From Parcubacteria group bacterium (GTDB taxonomy: Bacteria; Patescibacteriota; Minisyncoccia; Moranbacterales; UBA2206): DNA of 40,761 nucleotides. How positions within the stretch are numbered: the stretch's first letter is position 1; each line of letters opens with the position of its first letter. The stretch lies in contig JBAZXY010000002.1 in assembly GCA_041659585.1 (NCBI GenBank), positions 1 through 40,761 of the forward strand. Direction: 5' to 3'. This document shows positions 2,832 through 23,447 of this stretch, in pieces. A program made the translations under genes and the position numbers. The notes beneath the pieces were generated by a model. It was not told where the DNA came from. It searched no databases and was given only the letters and a program-made list of their open reading frames with translations.

Positions 2832-3794
2832 TTAATCTTGATATAAGTGCTTATTCTCATTATACCATGCGACAAAATTAGCCATCCCGTCTTCAATTTT
2901 GGTCTTCGGGTCATAGTCCAACATTTTGCGGGCTTTAGTGATGTCAGCATAGGTAATTGGCACGTCACCGGAAAACATCGGATACTGCTTAATATTGGCT
3001 TTTTTGCCTAAGCATTTTTCCACCACCGCAATGAAACTATTCAGATCAATGGTATCCGAGTTACCCAGGTTGAAAATTTCATAGCCGAAAATTCGATCAA
3101 TGGCCGCAATCACCCCATCTACAATATCATCGATATAGGTGTAGTCGCGTCTGGTTGACCCATCGCCGAATCTTTTCACTTCCATTCCTTCATCAATCCA
3201 TTTAGTGCACAAAAACGGGAACATATCCGGTCGTCCGCCTGGTCCATAGACCGTGAACGGTCGGATGACATTCACATTCAGCTTGTGCAAATAGTGATAG
3301 GCGTGTGCCATCAGTTCTGTGGCTTTTTTTGTCGCCGCATAGGGAGAAATGGGGAAATCCACATTATCCGTTTCCGCAAACGGCACTTTCTTGTTTTCGC
3401 CATACACAGAAGAAGAGCTGGTCAGCACAAAATTTTCAATGCCAAAGTCCTTGGACAATTCTAGCAGATTCAAAGTGCCGATATAGTTGGTGTCGGCATA
3501 AATAAAGGGATCGGCAATGCTGGGACGCACCCCGGCACGCGCCGCCGGATGAAAAACACGATCAAATTTTTCTGTGGCAAAAATGTTTTTCAGCAATTCA
3601 TAATCTGTGATATCACCCCGATATAGCTTGTAATTCGGATTGGCGGCAAATTGCGCCACATTATCCTCTTTCACCTTCGGCGAATAGTAGTCATTGAAAC
3701 TATCTACACAAACCACACTGTCTCCCCGCTCTAACAATTTCTTGGTAACAGCTGACCCAATAAACCCCGCTCCACCGGTAACTAATATTTTCAT
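2832..3794 (-). CDS. NAD-dependent sugar-nucleotide epimerase (SDR family, UDP-glucuronate 4-epimerase-like)
   Basis: Rossmann motif MKILVTGGAGFIGS, catalytic YAATKKATE (YxxxK), and the DYYSPKVKEDN region typical of the GalE/UDP-GlcA epimerase clade. Confidence 0.85.
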   Translation of the reverse strand: MKILVTGGAGFIGSAVTKKLLERGDSVVCVDSFNDYYSPKVKEDNVAQFAANPNYKLYRGDITDYELLKNIFATEKFDRVFHPAARAGVRPSIADPFIYADTNYIGTLNLLELSKDFGIENFVLTSSSSVYGENKKVPFAETDNVDFPISPYAATKKATELMAHAYHYLHKLNVNVIRPFTVYGPGGRPDMFPFLCTKWIDEGMEVKRFGDGSTRRDYTYIDDIVDGVIAAIDRIFGYEIFNLGNSDTIDLNSFIAVVEKCLGKKANIKQYPMFSGDVPITYADITKARKMLDYDPKTKIEDGMANFVAWYNENKHLYQD

Positions 3795-13060: not shown

Positions 13061-13076
13061 TAGCGACGCACCATCT

Positions 13077-13108
13077 TAAAAAGAACTTTTTCTAACGTTC
13101 TTTTTTTT
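13077..13108 (+). terminator. weak intrinsic terminator after the PEGA gene
   Basis: aaaaagaac / gttcttttt stem with a 10-nt loop, followed by a T-run. Confidence 0.4.
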
Positions 13109-13124
13109 AATTTTCCCACATAAA

Positions 13125-13152
13125 AGGCGCTTCGATTTTAATCGAAGCGCCT
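13125..13152 (-). terminator. intrinsic terminator after the GNAT gene
   Basis: 12-bp perfect stem aggcgcttcgat / atcgaagcgcct with a 4-nt loop, followed on the minus strand by TTTTAT. Confidence 0.6.
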
Positions 13153-13160
13153 GGTGAAAA

Positions 13161-13706
13161 TTAGCTGTTCTGCAGTTCCCACTCTCGCTTCAGAAGACCA
13201 AATATGACGATATCGTGATATTGACCTCTCTTATAGGCCCCTTCGCGTACCAAACCATCTTGCTTGAAGCCAATTTTGCGATGCATGCCAATGCTCTTTT
13301 CATTGAAGGCATAGGCGCGAGAAGATATGCGATGCATATTCAATTCATCGAATCCATAGGCAATAATCAATTTGGCCGCCTCAGTGCCATAACCATGACT
13401 CCAATAATCCTTCTCCCCGATAGCGATACCGAATTCGGCATCCCTGTTTTTCCAATCAATGCCATGCAGACCGCAAGTGCCGATAGGAATGCTTTTTTCG
13501 CTATCCATCACTTCGATGACAAAAACAATATCTGTGCTTTTACGCGTGGTGCTCAGCCCTTCTAACCATTTTTCTTCCCCGATTTCTGTCATCGGCAGAT
13601 ACATGGAAAGATTACAAATAATTTCAGTGTCGTTAAACCACCGCAACATATTTGCCAAATAAGCTTTTGTTACGACTCTCAGTATGATTCTTTCACCTTG
13701 TAACAT
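13161..13706 (-). CDS. GNAT family N-acetyltransferase (RimJ/RimL-like)
   Basis: ...GTCGLHGIDWKNRDAEFGIAIGEKDYWSHGYGTEAAKLIIAYGFDELNMHRI... is the GNAT acetyl-CoA fold pattern. I start it at the ATG at 13706 (M26 of the track ORF) because AGGGAGGA lies 5 nt upstream. Confidence 0.85.
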   Translation of the reverse strand: MLQGERIILRVVTKAYLANMLRWFNDTEIICNLSMYLPMTEIGEEKWLEGLSTTRKSTDIVFVIEVMDSEKSIPIGTCGLHGIDWKNRDAEFGIAIGEKDYWSHGYGTEAAKLIIAYGFDELNMHRISSRAYAFNEKSIGMHRKIGFKQDGLVREGAYKRGQYHDIVIFGLLKREWELQNS

Positions 13707-14081
13707 AATATCCTCCCTACACCTAACTGTGGACGATTCCCTTTCCTCGAATGAGGCCTTCAAAAAGACTGCTTGTTTCAATTATTAAAGTACTTTTCCA
13801 GATATAAAAAAGCTCGGCTTTTTATCTAGCCGAGATGGTTTTTTGTCGCATGCAGTTTTATCCTGAGATTATGGCATCTCGCATCTAAAACTATTTAAAT
13901 TCACAAAAACCGCCTGGGCCAGATAAGCAACCATTAAGGTTGCTTTGCAATCGAAGATCACTGGAGAATTAGCTCCAGCTTGCCTTAGATTCATTCGGTT
14001 TTCGTGATATCTTTGCATATTTTTTACTTTACATCTACTTTTTATCATAAACTCCTATTTTTGTCAAATTTACGAACAACC

Positions 14082-14203
14082 AAAAAAGCCCTCACGGACT
14101 TTTTTGATTGGGCTATTTTGGAAAATTAAATCATTAAAAAGTTTAACCTTAATTTTAAATTCAAAATTAGAAATTAGAAATTCCCGGCCCTATTCCCACT
14201 TCG
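14082..14203. repeat. 122-bp direct repeat, copy 1 (partner at 16699-16820; 121/122 identical)
   Basis: Read directly: aaaaaagccctcacggacttttttgattgggctattttGgaaaatt...gaaattcccggccctattcccacttcg. The only mismatch is G/A. It carries a relic of the kinase 3' end (LLTKWE-stop at 14190-14210). Confidence 0.9.
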
Positions 14204-14224
14204 TCAATAGTTACTCAAAAGCTA

Positions 14225-14926
14225 TTACCTGTCTTTTTTGATAATAATCACTGCTTCAGCTAATAGATTTTGGAAGTCTTTATTTTTTGACCAAACATCT
14301 CTAAGCGCCTCCCTCAACTCAGCGTGCTCGGGATAGCCATTGTCTTGAGATAATATAATACCCCCAAATTCCGGTTCATTCAACAGAAACGTCAACGCCT
14401 CCTTTAGGTCCTCGATTTGCTCATCTGCCAATCCATTCTTTTCTAAATAATCCCGATAATAATACAAAAATTGCAGATGCATGATTTCATGGCAGATTGT
14501 AGTAATGGAAAAAGGGACACTATGCCACATTGAAACCATAAACCAACCCTCTTTTTCATCATAGGGACACATGAGTCCGGTAGTGAAATAACAATCAAAT
14601 CCTTCTTGAAAAATAGGTTTCTGCATAATGTCCGCCAAAATTTCAAAATATTTTTCTTCCACCAATCCCCAAGACTCCTCCAGAGCTCGCATCTCAGCAC
14701 GCATCACCCGATTCTTATATTCTGTTTTCACATTTTTTTTGATATATTCCGCTACAATTGCTTGCGCCTGAGCAAAGCCGGCTTTTTCGATTTGCACTAG
14801 CAGCTCATCCGGGATTTGCGCAATTTGATCGCGCCAATTCAAGCCCCAGACATTTCTGTCTTTGGCAATCACTACCCAGCTCCACGCATCTTTTTCTAAA
14901 TTGTAATCAAATGTAACTTTAACCAT
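14225..14926 (-). CDS. HExxH-motif protein, putative zinc metallopeptidase (candidate RiPP leader peptidase)
   Basis: 233 aa, soluble, with ...ITTICHEIMHLQF... (HExxH). It is the last gene inside the repeat-bounded cassette. No closer family recognised. Confidence 0.6.
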   Translation of the reverse strand: MVKVTFDYNLEKDAWSWVVIAKDRNVWGLNWRDQIAQIPDELLVQIEKAGFAQAQAIVAEYIKKNVKTEYKNRVMRAEMRALEESWGLVEEKYFEILADIMQKPIFQEGFDCYFTTGLMCPYDEKEGWFMVSMWHSVPFSITTICHEIMHLQFLYYYRDYLEKNGLADEQIEDLKEALTFLLNEPEFGGIILSQDNGYPEHAELREALRDVWSKNKDFQNLLAEAVIIIKKDR

Positions 14927-14932
14927 AAACTA

Positions 14933-14961
14933 ATTATACTAAAAAAATAGGGAGTAATCAA
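14933..14961 (-). promoter_or_regulatory. sigma70-like promoter (TTGATT-17-TATAAT) ending 6 nt before the ATG, giving a possible leaderless mRNA
   Basis: On the minus strand TTGATT is at 14961-14956 and TATAAT at 14938-14933. Only tagttt separates the -10 from the ATG at 14926, and there is no SD. Confidence 0.4.
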
Positions 14962-14981
14962 ATATAAACTTGATTACTCCC
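14950..14981 (-). terminator. intrinsic terminator/attenuator between the rSAM and HExxH genes
   Basis: 12-bp stem gggagtaatcaa / ttgattactccc with an 8-nt loop, followed on the minus strand by TATTTTTTT. Confidence 0.55.
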
Positions 14982-14991
14982 CTATTAAAAA

Positions 14992-16365
14992 CTACTTCGT
15001 CTGCTCATACAGATCCCAAATTAACCAATTCAGGGTTTCTTTCGCATGAATGCAAAAATTATCATCAATATCCCAGATACTACCGTTATTCATTTCCGCA
15101 TTATGAGGACATCCACCACCGCAAATAGTCAACGCCTCACAATTATGACATTTAGGCATATTGATAGGAGAACGCTTACTCCATTCTTTCCAGAACGGAT
15201 GTTCAAATGGATCAAAATCAGGATCAGGATTAACAAAAAACTCTTCTGTGCCACTATAAGCATGACACACTCCAATTTTTCCATTCGGGAGAATCACTAC
15301 CTGCTTACCGCATCCACAACAATCACGATCATAAATAGTTCCATCCACAAAAGCTTTCACCTTGCGCATCATTCGCGCTTCGTAGATACCGCGTTCTCGT
15401 GCAATCTCAAAGCACTCAATCATTGCATGCGCCACTCTATTAGGATAGCCTGAGTCATTGATTTTATATTGATGACTATTCAACAATGGATTGAAACCAA
15501 CATTACTTATTCCAACATCATCCAGAAACCAATTAAAAATCTGTGGCAATTTATCTACATTGGCCTCACTGACAGTGCAGGATATACATGCTTTGGCACC
15601 AACCTCCTTCAGAATAGATATTCCTCGCACAACATCATCGAATGTTCCGCTACTTTTTCCAAGCCAAACTCGGCAAGCATCATGAACTGATTGATATCCA
15701 TCCAATGAAACATCCACTTCTATATTATGTTTTGCACAAAACGAAGCGATTTCATGGTTAATCAAAGAACCATTTGTATTAACATTCATCGTCAGATTTT
15801 GTGGCAATGCTCCAGACCGCTTAAGAGCAGCCACCTCCTCAACTGCAACAAAAAAGATGTCAGCATTAATAAATGGCTCACCTCCGTAAAAAACAATGCT
15901 TGGCTCATATGGATGAAAATCGGTGTATTCGCAAGCCTTTTTTAAAAAACCTGCAAATTGCCTCACCGAGGCTATGGCCATATCCTTCGTCATATTTATT
16001 GCTTTTTCCTTTGGACCATCATAAGAGCCCTCAAAAAAACAATAAGTACAACCAAAGTTGCAGTTGTTCGTTAAGAGCAGATAGAGCGTGTCGATAGAGG
16101 GATGTTGAAGAATCGATTCTTGCAGTGATTTAAGACTCTCATCCTCATTCATATCAATCGCTACTACGAGATTTTTTTGAACCAAGTATTTTATCGCTTC
16201 ATTATCAACATCGACGGAAGATGCTTGAGATAAGTAATTACGCATATCAATAAGATTTGCGCTAGTGACAAAGACTACTTCCCGGGACAAAGCATGAAAA
16301 ATTGCAGTAATCCCATTTTTTTCGAAAAAGTGTACAAATTTAGAAAACTTAAGAGCATTCTTCAT
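14992..16365 (-). CDS. radical SAM / SPASM-domain peptide maturase with about 95-aa N-terminal (RRE-like) extension
   Basis: CNFGCTYC (CxxxCxxC) lies at about residue 100. The C-terminal auxiliary-cluster motifs are CCGCGKQVVILPNGKIGVCH and CHNCEALTICGGGCPHNA (SPASM). The ATG at 16365 has AAAGGAGAG 5 nt upstream; the track ORF begins at a GTG at 16386. Confidence 0.9.
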   Translation of the reverse strand: MKNALKFSKFVHFFEKNGITAIFHALSREVVFVTSANLIDMRNYLSQASSVDVDNEAIKYLVQKNLVVAIDMNEDESLKSLQESILQHPSIDTLYLLLTNNCNFGCTYCFFEGSYDGPKEKAINMTKDMAIASVRQFAGFLKKACEYTDFHPYEPSIVFYGGEPFINADIFFVAVEEVAALKRSGALPQNLTMNVNTNGSLINHEIASFCAKHNIEVDVSLDGYQSVHDACRVWLGKSSGTFDDVVRGISILKEVGAKACISCTVSEANVDKLPQIFNWFLDDVGISNVGFNPLLNSHQYKINDSGYPNRVAHAMIECFEIARERGIYEARMMRKVKAFVDGTIYDRDCCGCGKQVVILPNGKIGVCHAYSGTEEFFVNPDPDFDPFEHPFWKEWSKRSPINMPKCHNCEALTICGGGCPHNAEMNNGSIWDIDDNFCIHAKETLNWLIWDLYEQTK

Positions 16366-16397
16366 TTTATCTCTCCTTTTAAACACCTAAAGAATAA

Positions 16398-16425
16398 GGG
16401 AATGCACATTATTCTGTGCATTCCC
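16398..16425 (-). terminator. stem-loop (attenuator-type terminator) between precursor and maturase
   Basis: Perfect 11-bp stem gggaatgcaca / tgtgcattccc with a 6-nt loop. On the minus strand it is followed by TTATTCTTT. Confidence 0.6.
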
Positions 16426-16445
16426 TTCGGCTTACCTAGAAAATC

Positions 16446-16598
16446 CTAGGTTGTTACTTTGATCACACCAGTCTTACTGCAGCCATTGCCACCGCCAGAA
16501 CAAGATGAACAAGCTCCACATTTGAGATTCATGGCAACCTTTGATTCAAGCTTGCCAAGAACTTTCCGATAATGTTCGTCCCTCGGGATAATCAACAT
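16446..16598 (-). CDS. 50-aa Cys-rich putative RiPP precursor peptide (below ORF-track size cutoff)
   Basis: Hand translation gives MLIIPRDEHYRKVLGKLESKVAMNLKCGACSSCSGGGNGCSKTGVIKVTT. GGAGGTGG lies 6 nt upstream of the ATG. It sits directly upstream of the rSAM/SPASM gene on the same strand and has its own promoter. Confidence 0.65.
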   Translation of the reverse strand: MLIIPRDEHYRKVLGKLESKVAMNLKCGACSSCSGGGNGCSKTGVIKVTT

Positions 16599-16665
16599 TC
16601 TTTCCACCTCCATTTAATTCTTAATGAACATCCAATAACTAACACCATTGATAGCTATTATCCGC

Positions 16666-16694
16666 ATATTAGCAATACGCCATCACATTGTCAA
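16666..16694 (-). promoter_or_regulatory. sigma70-like promoter (TTGACA-17-TAATAT) for the precursor/maturase transcript
   Basis: On the minus strand TTGACA is at 16694-16689, followed by an exact 17-nt spacer and TAATAT at 16671-16666. Confidence 0.55.
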
Positions 16695-16698
16695 ATAA

Positions 16699-16820
16699 AA
16701 AAAAGCCCTCACGGACTTTTTTGATTGGGCTATTTTAGAAAATTAAATCATTAAAAAGTTTAACCTTAATTTTAAATTCAAAATTAGAAATTAGAAATTC
16801 CCGGCCCTATTCCCACTTCG
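16699..16820. repeat. 122-bp direct repeat, copy 2 (overlaps the last 14 nt of the histidine kinase CDS)
   Basis: Near-identical to 14082-14203. It contains the kinase stop codon and its AT-rich trailer. Confidence 0.9.
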
Positions 16821-18519
16821 CTAACAGTTCTGGCGATTGGACCAGGGGGATTTCAATGATGAAGCGCGAACCATGATCTTGACCATCGGATTCCGCCCAG
16901 ATTTTGCCGCCATTGGACTCAATCATGTTGCGACCCACATAGAGTCCCAGGCCGGTGCCGCCGGTGTTGAGGCGGGAAATGTCTTTGCCACGTGAAAATT
17001 TAGCAAACAAATAGGGCAATTCTGTAGCCGGCACGCCGATGCCGGTGTCCGCCACGGTGATACGAGCTGCGTCACCCACCTGTTGCAAGCGCAATGTCAC
17101 GCCGCCATGGCCATGCAAAGTATATTTGAGCGCGTTGTCTACCAAATTAGAGATCACTTCGCGCACTTTCACCCCATCAATAGTCACTTCCGGCACAGGA
17201 GTTTCCGGCGGCGTATATTCCAAATATAGGTCATTATCCTTGGCTCGCAAGGCAAAAGTATCCAACACTTCTCCACAAATTTTTTCCAAATCCCATTGGT
17301 CGAATTTGAATTCCATGCGGCCAGATTCGATGCGGGAGATGTTGAGCAAATCCTCCACCAAAGTGATCAAGCGTTCGTTGCTGATATAGATCTTGTTCAG
17401 CACTTCCACGTGCTTTTCTCCCACCGGGCCATAGGAACCTTCCAAGAGCAGAGACAAGAAGCCCTTGATGGCAGTGAGGGGGGTGCGCAACTGATGGGAA
17501 GCGATGGAGATAAACTCTGATTTGGCATTGTCCAAGGTGCGCAACTGATCATTGGACTGCGCCAAGCGGTCGGCCATCATCTGCAATTCATCCTTTCTCT
17601 CAACCAATTCCGCGCTGGAAATTTCCAAAGCCTCGCGCAACGCCACTTCCTTTTTCACCGAACGAATCAAATTCCAGCCCATGATGGCAGTCAAAAGCAA
17701 GGTGATGCCGGTCAATACTTGATTAGTGGTGGTTCGCACGAAAGCGAACATCGAAGCGATGAGAATGACCTGCGCCACAATCAAAGCCTGCGTTCCAATA
17801 AGCTTAATATTGAACGCTTTAAATTTAACTATCATATATGCCAATATGCCAATAAAAACAGGCATTCCAAATAATCCATATTGAGTCATCTTCCAATCAA
17901 GAGTGATACTGCCGAATACATTTGTCCAAGAAAAAGAAAGTAAAAAAAATAAAATTCCAGCACCAATCAATAAAATTTGTTTTTTGAAATATATATCTCT
18001 TTCTTTTATGTATTTATAAATTATATAGGAAAGTAATACTATTGCAATAAACATCTCTACTAAATAACCTAATTTAAAAATTGAACCCTCGATAGACTCA
18101 CAACTATCAATATTAAATATTGGGATATTAATATTTGTATATGTTAAACCTAAAAAAATAGAAACTATCATTGCATACAATATATTTAAAAAAACACTTG
18201 CCTTATTCTTATTTATATAAGCATATGCAAAATAAAAACTGCTAGTAAATATGATTATTTCTAACATAGGAAAAAAAGACCACACAGCTGTTATTATTGC
18301 AGAGTTGTTACTTGTCCAAGTGATTAAGCTAAACAATGTCCATATAAAAATACTAAAGGAAATAATAAAGAATAGTATACTAGTTAAACTCCTATTCCTT
18401 GATATAATAAAAAATCCAAAAAACAAAGACACTATTGCTGTAGGGATATGCGAATAGTAAATCATATCAGGAGCAGTAACGCAGCCACCTTGAACATTTG
18501 TTATTAAATTATATAACAT
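16807..18519 (-). CDS. sensor histidine kinase with N-terminal 7TM sensor domain (HisKA + HATPase_c)
   Basis: H-box FISIASHQLRTPLTAIKG, N-box VISNLVDNALKY, G-boxes DTGIGV and GTGLGLYVGRNMIESNGGKIWAES. There are about 7 N-terminal TM helices. No response regulator is present in the window. Confidence 0.9.
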   Translation of the reverse strand: MLYNLITNVQGGCVTAPDMIYYSHIPTAIVSLFFGFFIISRNRSLTSILFFIISFSIFIWTLFSLITWTSNNSAIITAVWSFFPMLEIIIFTSSFYFAYAYINKNKASVFLNILYAMIVSIFLGLTYTNINIPIFNIDSCESIEGSIFKLGYLVEMFIAIVLLSYIIYKYIKERDIYFKKQILLIGAGILFFLLSFSWTNVFGSITLDWKMTQYGLFGMPVFIGILAYMIVKFKAFNIKLIGTQALIVAQVILIASMFAFVRTTTNQVLTGITLLLTAIMGWNLIRSVKKEVALREALEISSAELVERKDELQMMADRLAQSNDQLRTLDNAKSEFISIASHQLRTPLTAIKGFLSLLLEGSYGPVGEKHVEVLNKIYISNERLITLVEDLLNISRIESGRMEFKFDQWDLEKICGEVLDTFALRAKDNDLYLEYTPPETPVPEVTIDGVKVREVISNLVDNALKYTLHGHGGVTLRLQQVGDAARITVADTGIGVPATELPYLFAKFSRGKDISRLNTGGTGLGLYVGRNMIESNGGKIWAESDGQDHGSRFIIEIPLVQSPELLAKWE

Positions 18520-21565: not shown

Positions 21566-22342
21566 CTATTCTTTTTCACCAAATAGGAATGAATCATCCT
21601 CTCCATAGCTGGGAATCATAATGTCCGACCTTTCTACGTTCTTGAATTCTTTTTCAGTCAATCCTTGCAAAATTTTTGAACCATCGACATATTTTTCTTC
21701 AACCTTGGAGTCTCCGGCCTGCAGAGCCATCCATCCGCCACTTTTCAAAGCTTTTTTTGAAAGATTCAGCACCTTGGTAAAAAATTCTTCAAATTCCGCT
21801 CGTTGATCTTCTGTGATTGGCTCTCCGGTGAAATCACACACAATCCCATCAAAACTTTCTTCCACCCCCGCACGCTCCAAATAGGCGAAGGCATCGCCAA
21901 TAATAAGCTCCAACCTTCGATCATTAAAAACTTTTTGATCGAGATATTTTTTGCAACCCACAATGACTTCCATATCAATCTCCACCATCCTCACCGTCAC
22001 GTTGGGATTCGACTTGAGAGCCAATTCTGCCACATAGCCATCTCCGCCTCCAAGCACAAGAATGTTCCGGTCCGTGTCTTTCATTTTTTTTAGAATTTCC
22101 TGATCATAGAGATGATGATCTTTTTCTGCAGTTTGCATAATGCCATCGATTATCATACATCGTCCAAATTCTTGTGTATCCACAAAGGTGATTTCTTGAA
22201 AATCTGATTTCACATGATGCAATATTTCTTTGATTTCAATTTTCAACTCTCCGCCAGAAAATCTATTAGGAAGACCTATGTATTTTTTCTGACCATCAAA
22301 AGCAGGATCTGCAGATATGCTCACTTGCTCATTTTTATGCAT
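21566..22342 (-). CDS. divergent spermidine synthase-like aminopropyltransferase (paralog of the C-terminal domain of the upstream fusion)
   Basis: ILVLGGGDGYVAELALK (GGGDG SAM/dcSAM motif), VEIDMEVI, IVCDFTGEP (compare D.TDP), MIPSYGE. Confidence 0.75.
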   Translation of the reverse strand: MHKNEQVSISADPAFDGQKKYIGLPNRFSGGELKIEIKEILHHVKSDFQEITFVDTQEFGRCMIIDGIMQTAEKDHHLYDQEILKKMKDTDRNILVLGGGDGYVAELALKSNPNVTVRMVEIDMEVIVGCKKYLDQKVFNDRRLELIIGDAFAYLERAGVEESFDGIVCDFTGEPITEDQRAEFEEFFTKVLNLSKKALKSGGWMALQAGDSKVEEKYVDGSKILQGLTEKEFKNVERSDIMIPSYGEDDSFLFGEKE

Positions 22343-22379
22343 TGTTTTTCATTTAACAATTTAATCCGCAAAGACAAAT

Positions 22380-23447
22380 TTATTTCTTTTCCGCAAACAA
22401 GAAAGCATAGGTTTCCCCATAGCTCGGAATAAAAATATCAGTTCTGGTCACATTAAATACTTTTTTCTCCAAGATACCCTGTATAATATCTGACCCATCA
22501 ATGAATCCTTTCATTGCGCATGACGCACCACCCCGGATGCTTATCCAGCCTGCTTGTTTGATTTTTTTCTCTGAGAAAGTAATCATTTCTTCAAAAAATT
22601 TCCTAAAATCATTTTCCTCTTTTTTCGTTCCAATCGGAGTATCAGTGAGATCGCAAACTATTCCATCATAGACATTGTCGGTATGTTTCAGAAAGTGCAC
22701 CGCATCTCCAATGGAAAGGTTGACATTTTCATTAGCAAAAATATCTTGGTCTAGAAATTTTTGAGCATATCTCACCACCTCCACATCCAAATCAACTATA
22801 TCCACTTTCAATTCAGGATGCTCCTGCATAGCTCGTTGAGCGACATAGCCATCTCCTCCGCCTAAAATCAAAATTTGCTTGTCAGTTTTTCGCATTCTTT
22901 TCAGCAATTCTTTATCATAGAGGTTGTGATCAACTTCTGATGAACGCAAAACTCCATCAATAATCAAACATCTTCCATATTCCTTGGTCTTGGCTACCAC
23001 TATTTTTTGAAAATCTGATTGTGTTTCATGCAGAATCTCCTCAATTTCAAGTTTCATAGGCTTGCCACTGCAAGAAATGGGCAAGTTCAAAAATTGATAT
23101 CCCCGATTAATTTTCTCCGTGTTCACATGATCACAAGAAACCAATGCTTTTAATTTTTCAAAAGCAGCCCTGGTCTCTTCTTCGCTGGCGCAAGTGAAAA
23201 TATCGCAAGCCGCATAGCCCTTGTCCGGCCAAGTGTGCACGGAAATGTGCGAAGAGGACAGCAACAGAAAACCTGTCACGCCCTGGGGTTCAAATTTATA
23301 AAAATATTCGTGCAAAACTTCCATGGAAGTCCCTTCCACTGATTCAGGCAGAACTTTTTTCCAAAAATCCACCGAATCAATTTGCGCCGCATCGCAACCA
23401 AAAAATTCAATCAGATAGTGAATGCCGTTAGGAGTAGAGTTTTTCAT
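22380..23447 (-). CDS. fusion protein: pyruvoyl-dependent AdoMetDC-like (SpeH/SpeD class 1) N-domain + spermidine synthase-like C-domain
   Basis: N-domain: HYLIEFFGCD...GFLLLSSSHISVHTWPDKGYAACDIFTC (self-cleavage/pyruvoyl motif, normally ESH). C-domain: ILILGGGDGYVAQRAMQ, VDLDVEVV, IVCDLTDTP, FIPSYGE. Confidence 0.8.
   Translation of the reverse strand: MKNSTPNGIHYLIEFFGCDAAQIDSVDFWKKVLPESVEGTSMEVLHEYFYKFEPQGVTGFLLLSSSHISVHTWPDKGYAACDIFTCASEEETRAAFEKLKALVSCDHVNTEKINRGYQFLNLPISCSGKPMKLEIEEILHETQSDFQKIVVAKTKEYGRCLIIDGVLRSSEVDHNLYDKELLKRMRKTDKQILILGGGDGYVAQRAMQEHPELKVDIVDLDVEVVRYAQKFLDQDIFANENVNLSIGDAVHFLKHTDNVYDGIVCDLTDTPIGTKKEENDFRKFFEEMITFSEKKIKQAGWISIRGGASCAMKGFIDGSDIIQGILEKKVFNVTRTDIFIPSYGETYAFLFAEKK

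Follow-up and report, generated by a model that had tools for sequence, protein, structure and literature searches.

The locus lies in a 40,761-nt stretch of the genome of a Patescibacteria (CPR) bacterium, hereafter the window, and all of the features given here with coordinates are on its reverse strand. Its anchor is the gene for a 570-aa sensor histidine kinase (16807 to 18519; Pfam HisKA, HATPase_c, and a weak HisKA_7TM match), and 58 of the 61 related genomes have an orthologue. In composition the gene is a mosaic, with a GC3 of 0.22 over residues 1 to 240 and of 0.51 to 0.73 over residues 241 to 570. Directly behind it stand one copy of a repeat (copy 2, 16699 to 16820), a three-gene cassette, and a second copy of the repeat (copy 1, 14082 to 14203). 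The cassette promoter, TTGACA-17-TAATAT with a TG extension (16666 to 16694; 10/12 matches in a promoter scan), begins 5 nt past copy 2. The first cassette gene encodes a Cys-rich precursor peptide (16446 to 16613; 55 aa as given in the ORF list); four other CPR genomes have homologues of it immediately ahead of the maturase. It is followed by the gene for a 464-aa radical SAM/SPASM-type peptide maturase (14992 to 16386; Pfam Radical_SAM and Fer4_12), whose best NCBIfam match, to the FibroRumin-system radical SAM peptide maturase, scores 276 bits and so misses the 400-bit cut-off. The last cassette gene (14225 to 14926 in the ORF list, stop codon at 14225 to 14227) encodes a 233-aa HExxH protein that has at least 192 homologue clusters and is widespread in Patescibacteria. 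The nearest relatives of the HExxH and radical SAM proteins are 72 to 78% identical and occur in other genomic contexts. Copy 1 adjoins the promoter and conserved structured leader of a GNAT gene (about 250 nt; 13800 to 14081), recognized by sequence homology and a consensus fold with eight compensatory pairs and returning no Rfam match. Homologues of this leader (71 to 76% identity) precede the GNAT orthologues of G036 and G002, and in L060 leader-homologous sequence is found between a kinase 3' end and GNAT. The GNAT N-acetyltransferase gene itself (13161 to 13781; Pfam Acetyltransf_3) lies between the repeats and a convergent gene for a 509-aa protein and, by synteny, is missing from the same position in the sister genome G001.

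A preliminary description of this stretch had reported 122-bp repeats, identical at 121 positions and 2,617 bp apart, and both repeat search and pairwise alignment returned the same pair. The direct repeat as a whole covers 131 nt at 97% identity (14082 to 14212 and 16699 to 16829; spacing, 2,617 nt), and its core (14082 to 14203 versus 16699 to 16820) matches at 121/122 positions with sharp edges on both sides, the sole mismatch being g at 14120 versus a at 16737. A 30-mer taken from the repeat was found at two places in the window, whereas 100 shuffles gave an expectation of zero. Copy 2 consists of the last 14 nt of the kinase coding sequence including its TAG stop (16807 to 16820), an AT-rich trailer (16723 to 16806), and an intrinsic terminator identified by terminator scan (16699 to 16722), and it runs upstream into the kinase open reading frame, of which it is the true end (...ELLAKWE-TAG). 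Copy 1 is a relic in which the same 14-nt end (CG-AAG-TGG-GAA-TAG in both copies), trailer, and terminator align with no kinase attached; it now forms the 3' end of the cassette and runs into native downstream DNA. Given that copy 2 is joined to the kinase and copy 1 to the native downstream DNA, a self-contained cassette has entered the locus at the kinase trailer, which became duplicated, as had been proposed. The two 122-base repeats are thus copies of the tail of the sensor-kinase gene that flank an inserted peptide/radical SAM/HExxH cassette, a small RiPP unit of the peptide-antibiotic type. The C terminus of the kinase (...ELLAKWE) was left unaltered by the insertion, and the cargo consists of independent genes. 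Between the HExxH stop codon and copy 1 lies a 21-nt junction (14204 to 14224) that contains a weakly kinase-like CTA-TTG-ACG (LLT). The degraded kinase homology described at this point is present as a reading (TAA-CTA-TTG-ACG ahead of AAG-TGG-GAA-TAG gives stop-LLTKWE-stop), and with 6/9 positions matching the kinase codons it is weak evidence on its own. Two ttgtcaaat blocks had been noted just outside the repeats (14061 to 14069 and 16688 to 16696); on the coding strand they are the TTGACA -35 hexamers of the next transcription unit, as in the cassette promoter and in the TTGACA-17-TAAAAA before the GNAT leader, and they do not belong to the repeat.

In the organism's own genome (1.42 Mb, 169 contigs), the 122-nt repeat is present in two copies only, and the remaining matches are 30 to 60 nt long, AT rich, and attributable to chance. 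Among 60 relatives searched, matches extending beyond the AT-rich stretch were found only in the kinase trailer and the relic trailer of G001. REP- or MITE-type dispersal was not found in these searches, which answers the earlier concern that the repeat might be a dispersed element. We considered that the structure could be an artefact of assembly, or that a free circle of 2.6 kb had been mis-threaded into the chromosome at the shared 122-nt sequence. The k=31 graph of sequencing run X1 does show the cassette as a loop on the repeat node, and neither graph nor depths would tell an integrated form from a circle plus an empty site. The depths, taken from k=31 Logan contigs of that run in which the 122-nt repeat masks circle and empty-site forms alike, are similar for the cassette (21.6), the flanks (19.4), and the kinase (17.6 to 20.8) and double for the repeat (38.7), which fits two repeat copies per genome. 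An artefact is nevertheless hardly credible: it would call for an implausible exact 1:1 ratio of a non-replicating circle to a fully empty site, the copies as assembled are distinguished by one base and by their extensions, and more than 12 independent assemblies, taken from different studies, contain analogous integrated structures.

Those structures are found across relatives of the window genome. In the sister species G001, the kinase is followed by a 6-kb cassette (aaRS-like, SDR, and amidohydrolase genes), a relic, and then the same 509-aa neighbour, so that the related-genome comparison revealed a different cassette and a different relic rather than the same two copies. This relic corresponds to kinase residues 485 to 570 (290 nt) with its own trailer, and its first 74 nt are 90.5% identical to the kinase of the window genome compared to 79.7% to that of G001 itself. 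Same-strand truncated kinase copies occur in the window, G001, L030, L032, L033 (four), and L038 and also in G010 (four), G033, G035, G036, G031, and G048. Where enough downstream sequence was available, relics were present at 6/12 metagenome loci and in 6 to 7 of 17 species genomes, that is, at about 40 to 50% of kinase loci, with one to four relics each. The kinase tail marks other inserted cassettes in many related, ultra-small CPR bacteria, sometimes four in a row, as in L033, where the relic-bounded cassettes encode DUF6922 and AbiEii, radical SAM and CYTH proteins, an AAA ATPase, and MNT and HepT. Array cargo includes the RiPP operon, toxin-antitoxin pairs, aaRS-like genes, and NUDIX genes. 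Counted from the kinase stop at about 12 independent loci, the repeat has its left edge anywhere between -14 and -414 nt and its right edge anywhere between -1 and +111; repeat length ranges from 25 to about 500 nt, and the only segment common to all repeats is the last 14 to 25 nt of the kinase coding sequence. The relic starts 0 to 21 nt after the last cassette stop codon in G000, G001, L030, and L033. In L030 a HExxH homologue (68% identical) directly precedes the kinase relic, so that this gene order is found in two species. Together with the tight junctions, this suggests that cassette and relic move together as one unit.

A pair of strains from different samples shows what recombination between such repeats can do. 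L043 and L038 are 99.9% identical, and L043 lacks 2,106 nt of L038, corresponding to exactly one cassette and one repeat. The markers switch from active type to relic type within a run of 104 identical nt in the repeat, 100 to 200 nt upstream of the kinase stop, and the 5' part of the L038 relic is of a different type from that of the single-copy strain L043. These are occupied and unoccupied forms of one locus linked by a crossover between the repeats, and either direction is compatible with the data. The earlier suggestion that homologous recombination could delete such a module is thus borne out in nature, for deletion or addition, by a relative.

We also considered whether the repeats are a regulatory device. 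Each copy in the window ends in a predicted, working-looking terminator with a TTGACA box within 5 to 17 nt of its end, and the G001 relic has kept its terminator through compensating stem changes. Such features would fit a selected duplication in which terminator and trailer were copied to the cassette end for their use there, either as an insulator between RiPP operon and GNAT unit or as an upstream element for the next promoter, with gene conversion keeping the copies identical; the repeat would then reveal little about the arrival of the cassette. We regard this as very improbable: 14 nt of kinase coding sequence would be useless behind the HExxH gene, the repeats of relatives are mostly coding and often end at the stop codon without the trailer, and relics decay like pseudogenes.

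The insert is flanked by direct repeats of the 3' end of its target gene, as integrative elements are, and the preliminary description had likened the pair to attL/attR while pointing out that the cassette has no integrase. The latter point held and can be widened: ORF and domain searches revealed no integrase or recombinase in the cassette or the 40-kb window, and no recombinase gene lies in or beside any related array examined or is linked in seven relatives. The organism's own genome has three Phage_integrase matches, on contigs C20, C1, and C114, and two conserved Xer-like tyrosine recombinases are present in every genome examined, either on a different contig or at a distance of more than 80 kb. 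The own genome contained no Y1 transposase, Pfam and NCBIfam searches of the cassette returned no transposase domain, and a repeat search found no terminal inverted repeats at the cassette ends. We therefore rejected a transposon with target-site duplication. The likeness to integrase-type attL/attR did not survive in its strict sense, given that about 12 loci have neither a constant repeat length nor a fixed crossover position and that the trailer lacks an attC-like fold. In integrons, IntI adjoins the insertion site, an attC hairpin ends each cassette, and the cassettes are mostly promoterless and driven by Pc. No IntI was found in the window or near the arrays, no attC-like or palindromic fold was found in the trailer when compared with shuffles (the terminator hairpin is the only stable structure of the repeat; z = 0.38), and the cassette has its own promoter directly after the terminator; an integron was accordingly rejected.

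Site-specific integration could still operate in a looser form, with the kinase end AAG-TGG-GRA-TAR as att core and a recombinase, for example an Xer-like one, acting in trans, as for IMEX, pdif modules, and integron cassettes. The shared last 14 to 25 nt of the kinase gene would be such a core, the conserved pair of tyrosine recombinases would be on hand in every genome, and the arrays, with small cassettes that include toxin-antitoxin pairs, resemble ssrA/tRNA tandem accretion and integron arrays. In L133, moreover, the same three-gene cassette lies between perfect 27-nt direct repeats of unrelated sequence. We consider this reading unlikely, since recombinase genes are lacking in and beside the arrays, repeat lengths and edges vary where the repeat of ssrA islands is a fixed 20 bp, and the trailer has no palindromic or attC-like structure. 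The L043/L038 crossover also lies well away from the putative core, and a common core at the stop codon is equally predicted by both homology models discussed below.

Our preferred reading, to which we assign a probability of roughly 45%, is that the repeats are both scar and handle of a homology-driven insertion of the cassette behind the kinase gene, as a circle and by homologous recombination. The 2,617-bp unit would carry one kinase tail (last codons, 3' untranslated region [UTR], and terminator) and the promoter-bearing peptide/radical SAM/HExxH operon, and as a circle it would recombine with the chromosomal kinase tail in a single Campbell-type crossover performed by the cell's own homologous recombination. 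The kinase would remain intact with its terminator (copy 2), the cassette would stand directly behind it under its own promoter, and the second tail (copy 1) would terminate the cassette and lead into the old downstream DNA. A reverse crossover between the copies would loop the cassette out as a circle with one repeat, which could re-insert at any sufficiently similar kinase tail, and repeated rounds at the same conserved, G+C-rich kinase end could build arrays of one to four relic-bounded cassettes. The 121/122 identity with sharp edges is expected because a crossover requires an identical stretch, and the variation of the edges from locus to locus fits crossovers anywhere within the homologous sequence. 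We prefer looping in and out to integrase-made attL/attR sites on account of those variable edges, the lack of a recombinase, and the L043/L038 crossover inside the repeat, and we infer from the scheme a circular intermediate, dependence on RecA, and a route of transfer between cells. Counting against it, a stretch of 122 nt offers RecA-type integration only a short substrate, and we found no earlier donor with the cassette beside a near-identical kinase trailer, which the model requires. Even under homology, the first duplication at any locus still needs an illegitimate or site-specific event.

An illegitimate event is the centre of another possible, albeit doubtful, explanation, namely, one-sided homology-facilitated illegitimate recombination (HFIR) of linear DNA taken up from a close relative, a "sequential displacement" with no circle in which the repeats are a by-product. 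The donor kinase would anchor by homology, the far end past the HExxH stop would join illegitimately 14 nt before the recipient kinase stop, and the recipient's own kinase tail would be pushed downstream. HFIR would end in the same arrangement, with left edges that vary in the same way, and both the GC3 mosaic of the kinase and the closeness of the 5' 74 nt of the G001 relic to the window kinase fit repeated overwriting of the kinase 3' half by incoming DNA. It would, however, require the illegitimate joint to fall within 0 to 21 nt after the last stop codon at four separate loci, and it needs a donor with a 99% identical noncoding trailer, yet the three codons upstream differ at 3/9 positions. 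HFIR into an L043-like recipient does not predict the type of the L038 relic 5' part. The process has been put forward for comparable arrays, and its reported frequency is orders of magnitude below that of ordinary recombination (PMC5361080).

CPR bacteria, or Patescibacteria, have tiny genomes with few recognizable mobile elements, yet a strongly varying accessory gene content. The kinase-end locus and its relatives represent one concrete, recurrent route of gene gain and loss in these bacteria with no integrase seen, in which the kinase end is a docking point that collects RiPP operons, toxin-antitoxin pairs, and defence-type and metabolic genes. We found no published description of such kinase-end arrays in CPR in the literature searched. 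Extending the homology-driven reading, we tentatively suggest, with considerable doubt, that the arrays are a recombinase-free counterpart of the integron: the conserved, G+C-rich kinase 3' end of a Patescibacteria family would serve as a landing pad, and small promoter-bearing cassettes tagged with kinase-tail homology would circulate between cells, probably via DNA uptake, and be looped in and out by homologous recombination. The 122-nt pair would then be the youngest and still active, and the system may be kept for accessory-gene sampling in reduced genomes. If homology alone drives the process, any conserved gene end could become a cassette anchor. With 99% identical repeats and a known source sample, the window locus is the best place to seek ongoing excision.

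Several known systems share parts of this design. Like integron arrays, those described here hold one- to three-gene cassettes, toxin-antitoxin pairs included, behind a fixed anchor, each ending in a common sequence; unlike them, they have no IntI and no attC-type folded site, and the cassettes have their own promoters. In ssrA/tRNA islands, too, a conserved single-copy gene has its 3' end repeated downstream, and tandem accretion produces a variable region. The ssrA islands of Dehalococcoides (McMurdie et al. 2011, PMC3146451) have a constant 20-bp repeat, a mapped insertion point, and mostly a serine-recombinase module, although some units lack their own integrase, as here, and a circular intermediate is presumed; the kinase-end repeats, at 25 to about 500 nt, have no fixed edge and no linked recombinase. 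The effector-immunity modules of the Vibrio cholerae T6SS (Kirchberger et al. 2017, PMC5361080), for which sequential displacement by one-sided HFIR was proposed, also grow beside a conserved upstream gene without an integrase, shift older units downstream, and are later shuffled or removed by homologous recombination. Their cargo, unlike that described here, comprises effector and immunity genes only, and their cassettes are not regularly bounded by stubs of the conserved gene end. In Rhs arrays and orphan cdiA-CT/rhs-CT regions, as at the kinase locus, an intact conserved gene is followed by same-strand truncated copies of variable length, each bounding a different insert, with no dedicated recombinase and with the older end pushed downstream. 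The Rhs repeat lies 5' of the variable protein tip, and with every event the toxin is altered and an immunity gene gained, whereas at the kinase locus the repeated sequence is the very 3' end of a sensor kinase (in the window chiefly 3' UTR and terminator), the kinase protein stays as it was, and the inserts are unrelated, self-promoted cargo. Under the "C-terminal displacement" model for Rhs (Jackson et al. 2009, PMC2935791), homologous recombination between repeats yields a circle that then enters a homologous gene by a single crossover, and forms linked by a homologous crossover inside the repeat are what L043 and L038 represent. The scheme that we favour would apply this circle model to an ordinary regulatory gene and whole gene cassettes and, if homology alone is the driver, would extend Rhs-type displacement from toxin genes to general gene capture.

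All genes at the locus lie on the minus strand. In reading order, the sensor kinase (HisKA and HATPase_c domains; 16807-18519) comes first, followed by repeat copy 2 (16699-16820), a consensus cassette promoter predicted by the promoter scan (TTGACA-17-TAATAT; 16694-16666), the Cys-rich precursor peptide (16446-16613), a radical-SAM/SPASM-type maturase (14992-16386; closest NCBIfam model FibroRumin maturase, below cut-off) and the HExxH protein (14225-14926). A 21-nt junction leads into copy 1 (14082-14203), downstream of which lie a promoter, a leader of ~250 nt and the GNAT gene (13161-13781), and the end of a convergent 509-aa gene closes the order. Repeat search and pairwise alignment within the window returned a direct repeat of 131 nt at 97% identity (14082-14212 and 16699-16829). 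The near-perfect 122-bp repeats reported in the preliminary description were confirmed by this alignment, with 121 of 122 core positions identical at a spacing of 2,617 nt and a sole mismatch of g at 14120 versus a at 16737. On the minus strand, the repeat unit comprises the final 14 nt of the kinase frame (CG-AAG-TGG-GAA-TAG), an AT-rich trailer of ~84 nt and an intrinsic terminator, AAAAAAGTCCGTGAGGGCTTTTTT. A 30-mer from the repeat occurs twice in the window versus 0 times expected by chance, and a search of the whole assembly for the 122-mer (1.42 Mb, 169 contigs) found both copies here and no third; thus, a chance match and a dispersed element are both ruled out. The latter was also rejected on the search of this genome and 60 relatives, which gave, besides kinase trailers, only AT-rich chance matches. 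A structured RNA or attC-like site was rejected as well, given that the Rfam search of the repeat gave no match (at E<=1 only a meaningless miRNA hit) and folding gave no structure beyond the terminator (z = 0.38). The degraded homology described upstream of copy 1 is present as CTA-TTG-ACG (LLT) but is weak, given that these three codons match the kinase at 6/9 positions, and the ttgtcaaat blocks do lie outside the repeats, each being the -35 box of the promoter that follows the repeat copy.

Copy 2 is continuous with the kinase. Copy 1 adjoins a conserved leader (13800-14081) that lies directly upstream of GNAT orthologues in the related genomes G036 and G002 and, on metagenome contig L060, between a kinase 3' end and GNAT. 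Given these two contexts, what was inserted is the cassette plus one trailer copy, with the two repeat copies forming its left and right junctions. The polarity of the two copies bears out the earlier proposal that the peptide-maturase-HExxH unit was inserted at the kinase trailer. The DNA after copy 1 showed no convincing homology beyond the terminator to the DNA after the kinase trailer of the sister species (G001). Whatever its origin, copy 2 is now the predicted terminator of the kinase transcript just ahead of the cassette promoter, and copy 1 the predicted cassette terminator just ahead of the GNAT promoter. A purely regulatory duplication would draw on these terminator positions; we consider it very unlikely.

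The structured leader upstream of the GNAT gene (~250 nt, window 13800-14045, minus strand) folds into a long closing helix (ATCACGAAAACCG...CGGTTTTTGTGA) around two hairpins that carry compensatory changes, and an intrinsic terminator comes next (13834-13813). In three related genomes (G036, G002 and G008) and on L060, GNAT orthologues are preceded by homologues of the leader (71-76% identity), an Rfam search of the leader gave no match, and polyamine genes are found nearby (21566-23447). The leader resembles an undescribed riboswitch-type element that would control a SpeG/RimJ-like acetyltransferase. After the GNAT terminator (window 13125-13152; 13061-13124), ATGTGGGAAAAT resembles the kinase end AAGTGGGAATAG at 9/12 positions; it could be an ancient, decayed relic, in which case leader-GNAT would be an earlier cassette, and is too short to judge.

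The sister species shares the window's neighbors (443-, 132- and 509-aa genes, ~90% protein identity) and carries, from the kinase to the 509-aa gene, a different 6-kb cassette (L028 6099-11432 = G001:C59). This cassette encodes an amidohydrolase, an AspRS-type enzyme, an SDR and a GluTR-N/class II (D/K/N) aaRS fusion, and may represent an aminoacyl-tRNA-dependent small-molecule pathway. Behind it lies a 290-nt relic that corresponds to kinase residues 485-570 and has a trailer and terminator of its own. Identity between this relic and the G001 kinase is 80-95%, and the first 74 nt of the relic are 90.5% identical to the window's kinase versus 79.7% to G001's own. With this different cassette and relic in G001, the possibility that all relatives carry the same two copies does not hold. 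We surveyed relics through a metagenome scan for the kinase, then tblastn and blastn surveys, plus 20 further species genomes. Among those with enough downstream sequence, relics of the kinase 3' end, on the same strand as the intact gene and downstream of it, were present in 6/12 metagenome loci and 6-7/17 species genomes. The loci include L030, L032, L038/L063 and L033 (four relics, 0.8-1.6 kb apart), and the genomes G010 (four relics), G033 (two), G035 (two, both 100% identical over 81 nt), G036, G031 and G048. Exact-protein look-ups of the kinase and GNAT, seeking strain variants with an empty site, gave no match.

The edges of the repeats vary between loci. Counted from the kinase stop, the start of the repeated stretch is -14 in the window and -22, -53, -59, -71 to -106, -177, -207, -230, -257, -287, -314 or -414 elsewhere, and its end lies anywhere from -1 to +111; all repeats share only the final 14-25 nt of the kinase frame. 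Integrase-made repeats at gene ends are constant, as in the Dehalococcoides ssrA islands, with their constant 20-bp repeat, mapped insertion point and linked serine recombinase (PMC3146451), whereas the kinase-end repeats are not. The earlier statement that the cassette has no integrase was upheld, given that no recombinase or transposase lies within any cassette examined and the two conserved Xer-like tyrosine recombinases per genome are on other contigs or >80 kb from the kinase locus. The repeats do form the insert's junctions, but the attL/attR reading in its strict sense is not supported, as their edges vary and no recombinase is linked. For the same reasons, a trans-acting site-specific enzyme acting on the stop-codon core, the one part that all repeats share, is unlikely. 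A tRNA or tmRNA target was rejected, as neither the window nor the other RiPP-trio loci contain tRNA genes. An IS200/RAYT-type Y1 transposase was rejected as a general driver since the window's genome has none. Such a gene does occur near arrays of species from one metagenome. At L033, an IS200/RAYT-like Y1 transposase gene (2915-3595) lies just upstream of the kinase, and L030 has an internally deleted Y1 transposase copy within its array (2955-3270) and a 40-nt REP-like palindrome inserted exactly at its kinase stop (2750-2800), followed by a second AAGTGGGGATAA.

Metagenome contigs L038 and L043, from different samples, are 99.9% identical over the kinase. The order in L038 is kinase, NUDIX cassette and relic; L043, with a single kinase copy, lacks the cassette and differs from L038 by the absence of 2,106 nt, a length exactly equal to the spacing of the repeats. 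In a three-way alignment, L043 markers are active-type to column 166 and relic-type from column 271, including a 158-nt insert. This switch falls within a 104-nt stretch identical in both copies; hence, the two contigs are related by one reciprocal homologous crossover within the repeat. The crossover would be circle insertion or loop-out, the pair being compatible with either direction. The AT-rich insert occupies the same position of the kinase 3' end throughout, ~-109 nt or residue 534 (L038 6165-6322; L043 1488-1645; L063 2259-2416; L121 9321-9479). Relics of two species carry it, as does the sole kinase copy of L043, where it truncates the protein; a partial copy lies in a second G035 relic. 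The insert may be MITE-like.

We also examined Logan contigs of X1, a groundwater run of the source type in which 97% of the region's words are present. The left flank (depth 19.4) stops 30 nt inside the repeat, the full 122 nt of which form a separate unitig (38.7), the cassette is one unitig (14174-16728; 21.6) with both ends overlapping the repeat, and the kinase side has a depth of 17.6-20.8. These depths are consistent with each genome having the repeat twice and with the absence of a large empty-site subpopulation. As the repeat exceeds the word length k, the contigs fit the integrated form and a circle plus empty site alike. We consider an assembly artefact very unlikely, since the depths are equal, the copies differ at one base and the architecture recurs in many independent assemblies.

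We tentatively favor, at a probability of roughly 0.45, a two-step model such as Jackson et al. proposed for Rhs genes, with circle release and then single-crossover insertion (PMC2935791). Recombination between repeats would free a circle with one core fragment and the cargo, which would enter a related gene via a single homologous crossover and shunt the old end downstream. The model is consistent with the anatomy of the locus, the recurrence of such loci, repeat edges that vary, the lack of a linked recombinase and the L038/L043 pair. Linear one-sided homology-facilitated illegitimate recombination, proposed for Vibrio T6SS arrays (PMC5361080), is likewise recombinase-free and, taken singly, somewhat doubtful; taken together, recombinase-free homology routes are probable. 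The kinase is also a compositional mosaic, with GC3 of 0.22 over residues 1-240, similar to the upstream SET gene (0.26), and 0.51-0.73 over residues 241-570, compared to 0.33-0.63 for the window's other genes, placing the kinase core at or above the top of their range. This fits repeated replacement or GC-biased conversion of the core and, together with the mosaic G001 relic, supports the kinase end as a recombination hot spot.

Array cargo includes DUF6922+AbiEii, rSAM+CYTH, an AAA_14/DUF4143 ATPase, MNT+HepT, nucleotidyltransferase+HEPN (twice), NUDIX, Fic, methyltransferases, a TyrRS-like gene and peptidase S51. L033 carries a second AbiE module copy outside the array, and this copy is not flanked by a repeat. 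Relics start 0-21 nt past the cassette's last stop codon in this genome, G001, L030 and L033. The peptide/rSAM/HExxH trio is kept as a unit in Moranbacteria, Berkelbacteria and other CPR (58-78% protein identity), with a kinase beside it in none of these genomes, and the HExxH family comprises at least 192 clusters in many contexts. In L133, an unrelated CPR MAG, a perfect 27-nt direct repeat with an unrelated sequence, GTTCGAACGTCGTTCACGATGTCCCGC (120-146; 2485-2511), brackets a trio in which the maturase is truncated and the HExxH gene split; its flanks showed no homology beyond the repeat and no tRNA gene. An att-like repeat common to RiPP-trio loci was rejected, as one was found at L133 but not at L130, L131 or L132. 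A kinase relic in L030 is immediately preceded by an HExxH gene with 68% identity to the window's. This adjacency and the L133 repeat suggest mobility as a unit.

A literature search found no paper describing kinase-end cassette arrays in CPR. These arrays follow, in a new setting, the principle already known from displacement arrays. In contrast to known displacement arrays, the anchor is an ordinary CPR sensor kinase, the repeat is its extreme 3' end (in the window mostly untranslated trailer), and the cargo consists of arbitrary self-promoted gene cassettes.
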